40,212 nucleotides of DNA from a virus (IMGVR_UViG_3300032731_000668:128001-168212); one strand, 5' to 3'; positions 12,081 through 26,813 are shown, numbered from the stretch's first letter. Numbers and translations are program-made. Notes: a model not told the origin generated them from the letters alone.

Positions 12081-12165
12081 TTTTTCCTCAACCTCTAAGA
12101 TAAGAGATAAGAATGGGGAGGTTTCCCTTTCATTTCAGTAATTAATTGAAACTATCTTATCTCTT
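12081..12165 (-). promoter_or_regulatory. Structured leader RNA, copy 1 (endonuclease-associated pseudoknot element)
   Basis: P1 AAGAGATAAGA/TCTTATCTCTT; TAG; P2 TTTCA/TGAAA; GAAAG; P3 GGG/CCC with loop AACCTC complementary to downstream GAGGTT at the RBS. Confidence 0.7.
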
Positions 12166-12178
12166 TTTTAATATCATT

Positions 12179-12646
12179 TTAACTATAGAAAATTTGGTTT
12201 CTCCAGCTTGACCAACTATTTTTGCGATATGAATAATCATTTAGTTTCTGGGAAACATCTTCTTTTATTGAATTATAATAACTTTGTTTTGCTCGAAGAC
12301 TGTTTGCTTCAGAGTACATCTTAAAATCTCGGTCTTGGAGCATATTTCGACTTTGTAAAATATCATTGATTTCTTTCTTCATCCAATATTTAACCATAAT
12401 GGCCGAAAGCATTAATTGGTTTTCAGTTGTAAGATCTACGTCAAAATATCCTTCAATGACACTTCCGGAGACAGTATATGTTAGTGATTGATTGCATTCA
12501 TTAAATTCTAAAATACTGTTAAGCAAAAATGGTTCTAAATAAATGTCTAACACGAGACTGCCAGACGTAGTATAAATATTTGTAAGTCTATAGTCCGTAA
12601 TATTGGTCAAAAAAAAGTCAAATATTGTTGACGATAAAGTTCCCAT
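12179..12646 (-). CDS. Putative head-tail connector/adaptor protein
   Basis: 155 aa, AGGAGG RBS; FDVDLT.E..ML...MV.YW...I and DFKMYSEAN.L pattern recalls SPbeta-like head-completion proteins; synteny. Confidence 0.55.
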   Translation of the reverse strand: MGTLSSTIFDFFLTNITDYRLTNIYTTSGSLVLDIYLEPFLLNSILEFNECNQSLTYTVSGSVIEGYFDVDLTTENQLMLSAIMVKYWMKKEINDILQSRNMLQDRDFKMYSEANSLRAKQSYYNSIKEDVSQKLNDYSYRKNSWSSWRNQIFYS

Positions 12647-12733
12647 TAAGTAACCTCCTATTTAAATGCAAAATCCCACTACTTATAGAGGGAATATTTT
12701 ATATATGTAAATAAACTTATTAAACATCAAAAT

Positions 12734-12813
12734 TAGACAGGTAGGGAGTCGAACCCTATTTAATCGGAAGTATGAATCCAATGATTGCACCAATTACTAC
12801 AATAGGCCTATCT
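12734..12813 (-). tRNA. Atypical tRNA-like RNA, anticodon CAU (Met/Ile2-like or pseudo-tRNA)
   Basis: Acceptor AGATAGG/CCTGTCT plus A; T arm TAGGG-TTCGACT-CCCTA; anticodon arm ATTGGA-TTCATACT-TCCGAT (8-nt loop, or 7-nt loop with a bulge); D arm ATTGTA-GTAATTGG-TGCAAT; no encoded CCA. Confidence 0.6.
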
Positions 12814-12976
12814 ATTTATAGGTGTTCAGGTCACTCAATTGTCCGATGTATCGGGCTTCTTGGGAATATTCCCGCACCCTTACCCCAGACGCATCGCCCT
12901 CAATGTACCTATTTCTTCAATCCGTCAATTTATCACGCCGACGGAAAGCGTTTTCTTTTACGATAAAATGCCCATT

Positions 12977-13633
12977 TTATGGGACAAGAGGCATTTTTCT
13001 GTAAGAACCAGAAAATTCAGCCTCTTCAATTATTTTTACGCCAGAAATACGAGCGAATTTGTCTACAATATTCAAATCTAATTTTTCACCATTTATAATA
13101 CGTTCTATTATCATTCTACTAACATGTAGTTGTTGAGTTTTATTAGTAGTTTCAAGTAATTCAGCGCATTTTTCAGAATCACATTTGAGTACTTCTTGCA
13201 TTTGTTCAAAATCAAGGAGGTTTTCGTAGATTTCGTTGAATCCAGATTTCTTTACAACATCTTTATCGTTAATATACACATATCCTTCGCGGAAAAAATC
13301 AGTATAAAGACCGCTACCATGACTTTTTATTAGAAGTTGTAAATCTGAATAAACTATTTGTGATACATCTCCAAAATTAACCCAAGTATATGGAAAACCC
13401 ATGCCTTTTGTTTCGGTGGTCATTGTCAGCATGTTTGGACACAATGAGATTACTTCAATGTAATCGTCTTGACTTACACTATCTCTTTTAGATCTAGGTG
13501 CATCACTATCAATTTGTCTTTGCATGTTTCTTATCTGTATTTGTGATTCCAGAATCAATTTTTCCATTTTGTCGATCTGCGAATCTTTAGGAACCTGTCT
13601 TGTTGTAGTTCTTTTCTTAGGTTGTTCAGCCAT
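12977..13633 (-). CDS. Hypothetical head-module protein (SPbeta YonA-like position)
   Basis: 218 aa, GAGGA RBS; YTWVNFGD...YSDL...FFREGYVYI.D; first non-nuclease gene downstream of major capsid. Confidence 0.6.
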   Translation of the reverse strand: MAEQPKKRTTTRQVPKDSQIDKMEKLILESQIQIRNMQRQIDSDAPRSKRDSVSQDDYIEVISLCPNMLTMTTETKGMGFPYTWVNFGDVSQIVYSDLQLLIKSHGSGLYTDFFREGYVYINDKDVVKKSGFNEIYENLLDFEQMQEVLKCDSEKCAELLETTNKTQQLHVSRMIIERIINGEKLDLNIVDKFARISGVKIIEEAEFSGSYRKMPLVP

Positions 13634-13716
13634 AAAATCCTCTCAATTATTTTTTATACTATTATTATTACCAAATCAATTTGTTAGATTATCTAATTAA
13701 TTAATTTATTAATAAT

Positions 13717-24921: not shown

Positions 24922-24924
24922 ATT

Positions 24925-25866
24925 TTATTCTCCTTCATTTATTTCTTCAGCCATTCCAATTGATTCTAATTCGGAAGTATTAAAATCGCGAGAACCAGTA
25001 ATAAAATTGCGAATAGATCTAATAATGTCTTTTCGGTCTTCCTCTATTCCATCTATATCGTGATATTTTGTTTGGTCTTGCCACCATTCAGCGGGAGTTT
25101 TGTTTTCAATATCTTTTATCCACACACCAAATGCATCGGCAAATTTATTTGAGTCGGCTGCATTTTGTAATGCAGGAGTAAGCGCACTGTTTTTCATAAT
25201 TTCTTGTAATTGTTTTACTAAATTACTTGTAGACCCTCCCGTTATTCTTTCTTTGCGGATCTCGTTTTGTTTGTGACAAATTTCTCTTACGAGAACGATT
25301 TCACTCTGAGTATTACATTTAGTAGTTCTCTTCCATTTAGAAAATTCTCGCTCCAGATATTTATAATCATCTATGTTTAAATTATCGCCTTCCCCCCAAC
25401 TATCTTCATAATATTCTTTGTCTGGAATTATTTCGGTAGACAAGGATTCGATAACTTTTTTAGTCGGTTCAACAAAAGTCAAGTCTTCGTCTGTATTTCT
25501 TTTTCCGATTTGTGAATGCTGTAAAGCCCCTAGTTTAGATTTGTAGGTGCCAAAAATACTCTTTACTTTAGTGCCGCGTTCTTCATATGTTTGTATATGT
25601 TTTTTTGTTGATTCTATTGCCTCTTCGTCATATCGAACATTCAATAGTCGACACATTCGCAATAAAGTTTTTTCCATTGTTTTTTCAACAACAAAAAACG
25701 ATACATACATATTATTTATACAATCTTTGCACACCGACATTAAATTGTTTTTGTCCAAGAAAAAATCGGTCGCTTTGTAGAAGTATATTATTGGTTTATT
25801 TTTCATACATTTACGACAATAGTTTTTAGGTTTGTCTACTTTTTTTATTCTTTTGGAAATCGCCAT
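24925..25866 (-). CDS. Zn-finger protein upstream of TerL (YonG-like; candidate terminase small subunit)
   Basis: CRKC...CKDC N-terminus; FGVWIKDIE..TPAE; immediately precedes terL. Confidence 0.55.
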   Translation of the reverse strand: MAISKRIKKVDKPKNYCRKCMKNKPIIYFYKATDFFLDKNNLMSVCKDCINNMYVSFFVVEKTMEKTLLRMCRLLNVRYDEEAIESTKKHIQTYEERGTKVKSIFGTYKSKLGALQHSQIGKRNTDEDLTFVEPTKKVIESLSTEIIPDKEYYEDSWGEGDNLNIDDYKYLEREFSKWKRTTKCNTQSEIVLVREICHKQNEIRKERITGGSTSNLVKQLQEIMKNSALTPALQNAADSNKFADAFGVWIKDIENKTPAEWWQDQTKYHDIDGIEEDRKDIIRSIRNFITGSRDFNTSELESIGMAEEINEGE

Positions 25867-25883
25867 AGAACCTCTTTTAAATT

Positions 25884-25911
25884 AAAAAAGACTATAAAAA
25901 TATAGTCTTTT
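25884..25911 (-). terminator. Hairpin/terminator after GIY-YIG gene
   Basis: AAAAGACTATA-AAAA-TATAGTCTTTT; AT-rich, weak stem. Confidence 0.45.
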
Positions 25912-25937
25912 GATAATGTGATAATTAGTTTTTTTAT

Positions 25938-26726
25938 TTAAATGTCGTAGATTTCGTTGTACCATCCGTTTTTGACTTTATAGACGGTGGTTTTCCCAAC
26001 ATTCACCTCTTTTAATATTTTTGTTACGGATAAACCTTTACTTAATAATTTTGAAATATCTAAAATAACTTCTTTTTTTATAAGTTTCACTTCAGACATT
26101 TTTTCAAGTGTTTCTTCTGTATGGTGTTTCCCATACAGGGGGTTATTCACGCCCTTTTGTGCTTCGGACATTCTTTCAATTGTTTCTGGCGTGTGATGTC
26201 TTCCATACATAGGATGATTTTCCCCACCATTATCCCAATGATTTTCGGACATCTTCTTGCATGATTCTGGCGCGTGATGTCTTCCATAATTAGGGTTGTC
26301 TTTTCCTTTTTTCCCGTACATCGGATGATTTTCGCCACTAATATCCGCATGGTTTTCAGATATTTTTCTACACGTTTCTTCAGTCATAGGCGATCTATTT
26401 TTAGCGGATTCCGACATTTTCTCACGTGTTTCTGGCGTATGGATAAGCCCAGAAAAACCGCTTTTGCCACCCTCGCTAAGGTTATATCCAACATCTGGAT
26501 TAGTAGAATCATAGAATTCTATCCAATAAATTTCTCTCTCACATAAATAATCATGATCGGTGATGCCGTCTTCTAAAGTTATTCTGCTAAAATTTTCTTT
26601 ACCGTATTTCTTGATCGCTCGCCCGACATATGTGCCAGATCCGAGATAAGTTAATTTGTTCTCGTTAACTAATTTCCCCACGTAAACTTTATTTTTTATA
26701 TTATTAGTCGTCAAATATATTATCAT
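25938..26726 (-). CDS. GIY-YIG homing endonuclease with NUMOD3 repeats
   Basis: IIYLTTN...VYVG..YLGSG...AIKKYGKENF..E.YWI..YD...GYN; HTPETREKMS and NHPMYG repeats; C-terminal HTH. Confidence 0.9.
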   Translation of the reverse strand: MIIYLTTNNIKNKVYVGKLVNENKLTYLGSGTYVGRAIKKYGKENFSRITLEDGITDHDYLCEREIYWIEFYDSTNPDVGYNLSEGGKSGFSGLIHTPETREKMSESAKNRSPMTEETCRKISENHADISGENHPMYGKKGKDNPNYGRHHAPESCKKMSENHWDNGGENHPMYGRHHTPETIERMSEAQKGVNNPLYGKHHTEETLEKMSEVKLIKKEVILDISKLLSKGLSVTKILKEVNVGKTTVYKVKNGWYNEIYDI

Positions 26727-26813
26727 TTCTCTCCATACTCCATTAAATAAAAAGAATGGGAAAAAGGAGTCTTTTTTATCGGGTCGGTGATCATTCCGTT
26801 CCTATCCCATTCT
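26727..26813 (-). promoter_or_regulatory. Structured leader RNA, copy 4
   Basis: P1 AGAATGGGA/TCCCATTCT; TAG; P2 CGG/CCG; GATAA; P3 AAAG/TTTT with loop ACTCC complementary to downstream GGAGT. Confidence 0.7.

Follow-up and report, generated by a model that had tools for sequence, protein, structure and literature searches.

Do mobile nuclease genes of different kinds within one phage share a regulatory RNA leader, and what would such a leader do? The question is raised by bases 128001-168212 of the 168,212-bp virus record IMGVR_UViG_3300032731_000668 (32% GC), which is from an SPbeta-like phage. In this stretch of 40,212 nucleotides, hereafter the window, four intergenic elements of the minus strand stand in front of nuclease-type genes. 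Few selfish genes of phages are as common as those for free-standing homing endonucleases. How homing endonuclease genes (HEGs) stay harmless in essential operons is, to our knowledge, known only for a few T-even cases, which use ad hoc hairpins. We report that the elements belong to a family of leader RNAs that covaries, is not catalogued and accompanies mobile nuclease cassettes of phages. Judged from sequence, control of translation is the most likely role of this RNA.

A conserved three-way junction

Minimum free energy (MFE) folding gives the same three-way junction for each of the four window elements, all of which are on the minus strand. Stem P1 (9-11 bp) is followed by an invariant UA, hairpin P2, an A-rich linker (usually GAUAA), hairpin P3 and the returning strand P1'. 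In the proposed fold, P1 stacks on P3, and no linker separates P3 from P1'. An inverted-repeat scan finds 11, 11, 11 and 9 perfect P1 pairs in copies 1-4, with UAG after each. An initial annotation of the window had described these four elements as one architecture with the linkers GAAAG, GAUAA, AAAAAG and GAUAA, and both statements were borne out. It had also called the UAG invariant. This holds for the UA; the third base already belongs to P2, where it comes first and pairs with C or U. The relative L032 has UAA, with an A-U pair.

All four copies are real, but they are not the full set. When the whole genome is scanned for perfect inverted repeats with a TAG behind them, the number rises to six. 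The additional two (copies 5 and 6) lie just outside the window, at genome positions 127547-127612 and 123556-123620 (19547-19612 and 15556-15620 in locus L001). They are also on the minus strand, and both precede GIY-YIG genes. A strict descriptor (A|UA|R, P1 of at least 8 bp, exactly two hairpins within, joining segment J3/1 of at most 4 nt) has 8 sites over 336 kb (the genome, both strands), and 6 of these are the elements. The two extra sites (genome 133981-134067 and 113301-113409) were judged to be chance.

A covariance model (CM) trained on copies 4-6 alone, which are similar to one another, has copies 2, 1 and 3 as its best other matches in the window (E 2.6e-8, 4e-7 and 1.7e-3). Because copies 1-3 have nearly no sequence in common with the training copies, the shared architecture is not a reading artefact. 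A weak match of this kind at 35324-35387 (minus strand), within a 907-aa open reading frame (ORF), has a mismatched P1 and lacks the UA-G junction; it was judged to be chance.

Other viral and metagenomic contigs provided 22 further distinct copies. Covariation, which had been proposed as a check on the initial annotation, was assessed on a 20-sequence CM alignment (A8), and it establishes the fold. Standard pairs occupy 92.8% of the cells, 18 of 21 pairs change on both sides, and there are 104 compensatory cells. The covariation score is 0.695, compared with 0.25 for shuffled alignments (0 of 500 reach the observed value) and 0.10-0.18 after sliding of the partners. G.U cells (35) are more frequent than A.C cells (9), which favors the sense strand of the nuclease genes as the folded one. 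The stems vary freely while the junction is near-invariant: all 20 sequences have the unpaired UA and 17 have GAUAA, and the A-U pairs that close P1 and P3 are kept in 19-20 of them. Divergent copies have the linkers GAAAG, AAAAA or AAUAA, and P2 is lost in L025. As a side observation, the helices are asymmetric in A8, with purine-rich 5' strands and pyrimidine-rich 3' strands of P1, P2 and P3 (A-U 151 versus U-A 55; G-C 134 versus C-G 9). The 3' half of the element thus reads as an extended polypyrimidine stretch before a U-rich linker, and the tail might conceivably pack on P1 in the manner of a triple helix.

The initial annotation could not match the element to a named family, and neither could database searches. 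In the window, only a tRNA passes the gathering thresholds of Rfam 15. When the six copies are searched at E<=10, the best match is cow-rumen-4 (RF02948), on copy 2 only and with 20.3 bits versus a cutoff of 48.5 bits; it arises only when P2 and P3 are treated as a 50-nt insertion. For int-alpA (RF02996), there is no match in the genome at E<=10, nor on the six copies. Both families are likewise short structured leaders from phages or metagenomes with a hairpin related to the Shine-Dalgarno sequence (SD) (Weinberg et al. 2017, PMC5737381). A description of the motif was not found in full-text literature searches.

Association and co-mobility with nuclease genes

Homing-endonuclease-type genes follow all six genome copies. 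For a survey that is blind to gene content, IMG/VR was scanned with the pattern GGGATAGG-N12-26-GATAA-N3-10-ACTCC. Among the 51 matches, the length of the flanking P1 is bimodal, and 12 matches have a P1 of 9-11 bp (perfect or G.U-tolerant). Upon CM scoring of the matches, 17 score, representing 12 distinct sequences. Ten of these 12 could be annotated by Pfam, PHROG or a readable N-terminus, and 9 of the 10 have homing-endonuclease-type genes downstream, which agrees with the enrichment expected at the outset. The genes are of diverse families (5 GIY-YIG, 2 DUF4379/phrog_559-type, 1 HNH_repeat, 1 phrog_1271 HNH), so that the leader is independent of the nuclease family, as initially claimed. 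The tenth gene (in L138) codes for a 241-aa protein of no assigned family, without any match in Pfam or PHROG; its copy is the sole annotated one not beside a recognizable nuclease. The leader in question (L138 489-558) is GC-rich (57%), has an ACUCCC loop, and its P1, UA and GAUAA are intact.

The same pattern has at least 120 matches in prokaryote genomes; among the matches listed, P1 is chance-like (at most 8 bp). Metagenome contigs contain 4 true copies among the 120 matches listed, and at least 3 of the 4 precede GIY-YIG-like ORFs. The leader also heads such genes in unrelated uncultured phages. Conversely, the leader is not a general feature of GIY-YIG genes, as it is found at only 2 of 80 diverse IMG/VR loci with such a gene (L087 and, weakly, L102).

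For the four window genes, the initial annotation gave two GIY-YIG, one HNH and one PD-(D/E)xK nuclease. The GIY-YIG assignments are supported by profile matches. The HNH label (13783-14826) and the PD-(D/E)xK label (21821-22990; motif YDF...EYNGxQH) are motif readings that Pfam and PDB searches did not confirm. Three nuclease families in this set are thus plausible from motifs but are not shown by profile searches. The start of the 21821-22990 gene is uncertain (GTG 22990, TTG 22978 or ATG 22969).

Within this genome, 8 of 14 nuclease-type genes have no leader. Three of them are in the window and start 2-23 nt past an upstream ORF, in agreement with the initial annotation. The other five, on the plus strand, seem to lie directly against upstream sequence. 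The spacing of 2-23 nt would be consistent with translational coupling, which may make a leader dispensable.

That the element travels with selfish endonucleases was examined by comparison of TerL-anchored IMG/VR loci, and the idea held up. At all four sites, relatives without the HEG have spacers of 17-100 nt or a plain terminator, and there are no CM matches at any of these sites. In L014, nuclease genes are absent between the gene for the DNA polymerase exonuclease subunit and the next gene as well as between TerL and portal; in their place are spacers of 77 nt, with a plain terminator hairpin, and of 37 nt, both devoid of the element. The nuclease genes of the copy 1 and copy 2 sites are missing from L027, L029 and L033, which also have no CM matches. 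By contrast, L018 and L019 retain the copy 2 gene together with its TTGACA-17-TAAAAT promoter and a leader with compensatory P2 changes. As the leader is absent where the nuclease is absent and kept where it is kept, the element belongs to the nuclease cassette and not to the intergenic DNA of the phage. Leader and HEG are thus co-mobile.

The L016 leader is 97% identical to copy 4, but the GIY-YIG ORF which follows is a different one (ca 30% protein identity). When L016 255-500 is compared with window 26640-26880 (minus strand), the upstream coding DNA is about 80% identical, and homology ends exactly at the SD. This break suggests that ORFs were swapped behind a resident leader. Divergent leaders are found in L032 and L025 before other nuclease genes between TerL and portal. 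Not every nuclease gene in this region has one: in L017, and for the TerL-proximal gene of L018, nuclease genes follow 27- and 63-nt spacers that are short or unstructured, and the leader is absent.

A conserved and portable RNA module in front of unrelated nuclease families would mean that the regulatory leader is itself part of the mobile unit. It can also be used as an annotation marker for HEG cassettes in metagenomic phages. As a separate observation, the TerL genes of L020 (3116-4060) and L021 (2214-3089) have an insertion of about 0.9 kb after codon ~91, with a GIY-YIG ORF inside it in L021. This looks like an intron or another mobile insertion; TerL in the window has no such insertion.

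The P3 loop and the control of translation

The P3 loop is CU-rich in every copy. A perfect complement of 5-9 nt, here called the parking tract, is found 6-20 nt (mostly 8-12 nt) past P1' in 23 of 24 copies. Loop and tract change together in at least 8 variants (ACUCC/GGAGU, ACUCCC/GGGAGU, CUCCUAC/GUAGGAG, UUCCUUA/UAAGGAA, UCCUAA/UUAGGA, UUUCGA/UCGAAA); further such pairs are ACUCCUAAU/AUUAGGAGU and UUUCCCUCU/AGAGGGAAA. When tails are permuted among the elements, the summed match drops from 125 to 80 +/- 8, and 0 of 3000 permutations reach the observed value. The pairs initially listed for the window copies (AACCUC/GAGGUU, UUCCUU/AAGGA(GG), UUUCGA/UCGAAA, ACUCC/GGAGU) are all present and do change together. 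The partner had been described as the SD or a segment beside it. The SD is indeed a second partner, but most copies use a separate tract upstream of the true SD, which follows 2-6 nt on in GIY-YIG copies and 36-65 nt on in the others. Copy 2 has lost the separate tract; its homolog in L018 retains one.

Complementarity of the P3 loop to the SD window, which is complementarity only and not occlusion, is found in all copies over at least 4-7 nt (permutation P = 0.0003). In several copies, the SD region has a second instance of the extended complement, which lies 40-65 nt on for GUAGGAG (L121a), UAGGAGU (L153) and AUUAGGAG (L119); in L102, GAGGGAA is likewise present two times. In long-spacer copies, the bases beside the SD that extend the complement covary with the loop. 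Because the flanks around the repeated complements differ, selection for loop complementarity explains them better than recent duplication.

On these grounds, we hold it somewhat probable that the leader is a cis-acting RNA of about 60-80 nt, belonging to the mobile HEG cassette, which gates or throttles the initiation of nuclease translation. The CU-rich, anti-SD-like P3 loop would be displayed on the three-way junction scaffold, with P2 projecting from a junction made of the invariant UA and the A-rich RAUA(A) linker. The loop would alternate between the proximal parking tract, 6-20 nt past P1' (forming a pseudoknot), and the SD of the gene. Its position would gate the translation of a potentially toxic nuclease, presumably in the setting of a heavily transcribed polycistronic (late or structural) operon. 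Most copies start 10-20 nt past the upstream stop codon and are therefore read within a polycistronic message. The covarying fold, the loop-tract complementarity, the gene association and the co-mobility are observed; that the pairing would control ribosome access, in which direction, and what would move the loop between its two sites are inferences. The balance may be shifted by co-transcriptional timing, P2 dimerization, a junction ligand or protein, or ribosome traffic. The initial annotation had offered three functions, namely a translational switch, a sensing leader and a processing or catalytic RNA. Of these, the translational switch alone has positive support, because parking site and SD both covary with the loop.

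There are precedents for such control. In T-even phages, RNA structures that sequester the ribosome-binding site (RBS) regulate I-TevI, I-TevII, I-TevIII, segB and mobE (PMC2988022). As in these leaders, a cis-acting RNA structure lies directly 5' of a homing endonuclease ORF in a polycistronic phage transcript, and it has a segment complementary to the SD of the gene; the presumed purpose is low or timed translation of the nuclease. However, T-even leaders are gene-specific single hairpins with the RBS in the 3' arm, whereas here the SD is outside of a three-way junction and the contact is between loop and tail. T-even leaders are bypassed via an internal late promoter. In the present family, a conserved internal promoter was not seen by promoter scan, and sigma-70-like hexamers inside the leader (TCGACT-18-TATAAT, 23005-23034) occur in copy 3 only. 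Also unlike the T-even case, this is one conserved family which is common to unrelated nuclease families and unrelated phages.

The preQ1-II and SAM-II riboswitches and similar ones are SD-sequestering pseudoknots. They share with the leader a hairpin loop that pairs with a 3' tail at or beside the SD, a U-rich linker, and alternative pairing which decides (here presumably) on ribosome access. CM or sequence similarity to them is absent; the loop of the leader is set on a three-way junction, there is a separate parking site, and no ligand is known.

Several points weigh against translational gating. The SD window overlaps the parking tract in short-spacer copies, so that SD pairing is independently supported mainly by the long-spacer copies, of which there are about 8. 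The energy test against dinucleotide-shuffled tails has a moderate result (mean z = -0.9, Wilcoxon P = 7e-4), because such shuffling keeps the purine tracts, and any CU-rich loop finds partners in an SD-rich tail. In nearly every copy, the parking tract matches or beats the SD in pairing, and it is nearer. In the default fold, the SD may thus be accessible, in which case repression by the leader might be absent or due to steric crowding only. Furthermore, the alignment underlying the pair counts (A8) was fitted to the structure of the model itself. Finally, masking needs only a simple hairpin; a further function, which gating does not explain, is suggested by the invariance of the junction and by the palindromes in the P2 loops.

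These P2 apical loops are typically 9 nt long with a central hexamer palindrome U-N-N-N'-N'-A (UCAUGA, UAAUUA, UGAUCA, UAGCUA, UUGCAA). A palindrome of at least 6 nt is found in 10 of 17 distinct P2 loops (shuffled mean 1.6, maximum 6 in 2000 shuffles) and in 0 of 15 distinct P3 loops. It is offset from the dyad axis of P2, being preceded by 2 nt of the loop and followed by 1 nt. Such an offset would be better suited to loop-loop pairing between molecules than to a DNA dyad. The non-palindromic P2 loops of copies 2 and 5 have no local partner nearby. The HIV-1 dimerization initiation site (DIS) is a kissing-loop dimerization hairpin, and phi29 pRNA is a three-way junction with interlocking loops. 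With the former, the leader shares a loop of about 9 nt with a central self-complementary hexamer (2 nt 5', 1 nt 3'); like the latter, it has a three-way junction and a protruding loop that may be able to pair between molecules. There is no homology to either RNA, only 10 of 17 distinct loops are palindromic, and the element is a nuclease-gene leader and is not concerned with packaging or genome dimerization. A more speculative version of the switch, which we consider rather unlikely, is that copies dimerize via their cassette-specific P2 palindromes, and that the dimer or a junction ligand moves the anti-SD loop between parking tract and SD. If so, a selfish nuclease gene would, prior to translation, gauge how many transcripts or copies of itself are present or what state the infected cell is in. 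Regulatory RNAs of this kind, specific to mobile nuclease cassettes, would form a new class.

None of the other roles is positively supported. A sensor, in which the junction and the loop-parking pseudoknot form a pocket for a small molecule or a host or phage factor whose binding sets the loop position, seems unlikely. The near-invariance of the junction among freely varying stems would suit it, and expression platforms usually work in this way, with one loop and two mutually exclusive sites. As the same RNA is found before unrelated nuclease families, any sensed factor would not be the nuclease itself. Yet divergent copies alter the conserved positions or, in L025, lack P2, only about 6 junction nucleotides are available, known aptamer classes are unmatched, and the gene context suggests no ligand. 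It is still less probable that the element acts in RNA processing or stability, as a self-cleaving ribozyme, as an RNase site that frees the nuclease mRNA, or as a 5'-terminal stabilizer with an SD-like tract. A compact junction and pseudoknot with invariant junction bases does resemble small ribozymes. The hammerhead has the same three-helix topology, with a core of CUGANGA (joining stems I and II) and GAAA (joining stems II and III), but this core is absent here: J1/2 is UA in 20 of 20 sequences and not CUGANGA, and J2/3 is GAUA(A). Models for hammerhead, twister, pistol, hatchet and HDV-like ribozymes are unmatched even at E<=10. In twin-ribozyme introns, a lariat-capping ribozyme is reported to be located 5' of HEG ORFs (PMC2219692). 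In addition, copy 2 and its homolog have a strong promoter with the predicted +1 at the first base of P1 (conserved in L018 and L019), so the fold would be 5'-terminal there. Most copies, however, start too close behind the upstream stop codon to leave room for a promoter of their own and are thus transcript-internal, and processing does not explain the covariation between SD and loop.

A transcriptional insulator or terminator, with P1 and a U-rich run stopping or attenuating read-through into the nuclease gene, fits the data poorly and is quite improbable. It is true that P1' is pyrimidine-rich and that a U/A-rich linker follows in most copies (e.g., UUUUUAUUU or AUUUUUU), but U-rich linkers are expected in DNA with 32% GC, and copies 1 and 2 are devoid of a U-run. 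Several copies (L114, L153, L121a, L119) are already preceded by a canonical intrinsic terminator, a branched "loop" of 40-60 nt is atypical of such terminators, and the covariation of loop and tract is left unexplained. Least probable is a role on the other strand (antisense RNA) or in the DNA (a dyad bound by protein, or a site at which the cassette recombines), which again fits poorly. The P2 loops are palindromic like the binding sites of dimeric proteins, and homology between two cassettes ends exactly at the SD. On the other hand, G.U cells exceed A.C cells by 35 to 9, the pseudoknot partner is outside of the dyad, the palindrome is off the P2 dyad axis, and the reverse strand has a far lower CM score. 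Translation control thus stays the reading of choice, and the combination of anti-SD loop, parking tract and SD with a palindromic loop makes the leader a compact candidate for work on RNA switches and RNA-RNA pairing.

Annotated features and genomic surroundings

Every large gene of the window is on the minus strand. Among them are the genes for the tape measure protein, portal, large terminase (TerL) and the DNA polymerase exonuclease subunit, the 907-aa ORF and seven nuclease-type genes. Among cultured phages, the TerL sequences most similar to that of the window are from Thomasclavelia and SPbeta-like Bacillus phages (36-41% identity), and a megablast of the region against GenBank phages found no near-identical phage. 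The features are listed below; "R1" and "R2" denote covariance models, and copy 2 has a promoter of its own.

Table 1. Leader copies, their tails and associated genes (window positions).
Feature	Position	Strand	Evidence	Details
Leader copy 1	12102..12165	-	MFE fold; inverted-repeat scan; CM R1 E 4e-7; R2 65.9 bits	P1 12155-12165 with 12102-12112; UA 12153-12154; P2 loop palindrome UAAUUA 12139-12144; P3 anti-SD segment AACCUC 12118-12123
Copy 1 tail	12086..12095	-	Sequence; complementarity table	Parking tract GAGGUU 12090-12095, directly followed by SD GAGG 12086-12089; ATG 12080
Leader copy 2	14857..14929	-	Fold z = -4.2; R1 E 2.6e-8; L018 homolog with compensatory P2 changes	P1 14919-14929 with 14857-14867; P3 loop UUCCUU 14877-14882
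Copy 2 gene SD	14832..14838	-	Sequence	AAGGAGG, complementary to P3 loop; TTG start 14826
Copy 2 promoter, sigma-A type	14934..14962	-	Promoter scan 11/12 with TG	TTGACA-17-TAAAAT, TG upstream
Leader copy 3	23015..23094	-	Fold z = -3.1; R1 E 1.7e-3; R2 29.2 bits, filters off	P1 23084-23094 with 23015-23025; long P2 capped by palindrome GUUGCAAC; P3 loop GCUUUCGA 23031-23038
Copy 3 tail	22984..23005	-	Sequence	Parking tract UCGAAA 23000-23005; GAAAG 22984-22988 in SD region
Leader copy 4	26753..26813	-	Inverted-repeat scan; CM; 97% identical to L016 leader	P1 26805-26813 with 26753-26761; P2 loop palindrome UGAUCA 26788-26793; P3 loop ACUCC 26766-26770
Copy 4 tail	26731..26741	-	Sequence	Parking tract GGAGU 26737-26741; SD GGAG 26731-26734; ATG 26726
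GIY-YIG homing endonuclease gene	11208..12080	-	Pfam GIY-YIG and NUMOD3; phrog_314	After copy 1; NUMOD3, HTH domains
Nuclease-type gene	13783..14826	-	phrog_681/559, Pfam CapR; HNH by motif reading only	After copy 2; CapR-homology and zinc-ribbon repeats, C-terminal HNH-like DDIHHV
DUF4379/phrog_559-type homing-endonuclease-like gene	21821..22990	-	Pfam DUF4379; phrog_559, 9084, 7140	After copy 3
GIY-YIG-family homing endonuclease gene	25938..26726	-	phrog_314 E 3.5e-44; alignment with GIY-YIG paralogs	After copy 4; NUMOD3, HTH_7
Leaderless GIY-YIG gene	28742..29521	-	Sequence; profile search	Start 4 nt past upstream ORF
Leaderless GIY-YIG gene	32173..33132	-	Alignment	69% identical to copy 4 gene; start 2 nt past 907-aa ORF 33135-35858
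Leaderless EndoVII-type nuclease gene	36772..37362	-	Sequence; profile search	23 nt past helicase gene
tRNA-Thr (UGU)	27986..28058	-	Rfam and ARAGORN both call

Some minor observations concern the flanks of the leaders. In the regions upstream of them, no box was found at a fixed distance. The two copies outside the window and metagenome relatives (L291) have a common upstream box, TTTTATGTGGTTTT, and a similar sequence, (T)ATGTGR, precedes copy 2 and the leaders of L018, L102 and L156 at varying distances. In copies 4-6, a mini-ORF starting with AUGGAG ends at the HEG start. It is not conserved (L016 has only AUG GAG UAG) and was rejected as a feature.

A very strong sigma-70-type promoter (11/12 matches, with TG) is located at 13717-13745 (minus strand), between the copy 2 nuclease gene and the next gene; the copy 2 cassette thus has a promoter at either end. 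Another one is found at 28613-28641 (minus strand; 12/12 matches, with TG). ARAGORN calls no tRNA at 12734-12813. Both ends of the genome record (G000 1-70 and 168080-168212) bear short tandem repeats, with four units of GAGCCCTTCCCCAGAGT at one end and, at the other, several repeats of a unit of about 33 bp, GAAGGAACCTTCC.GCAGG.AAGCTTGA.

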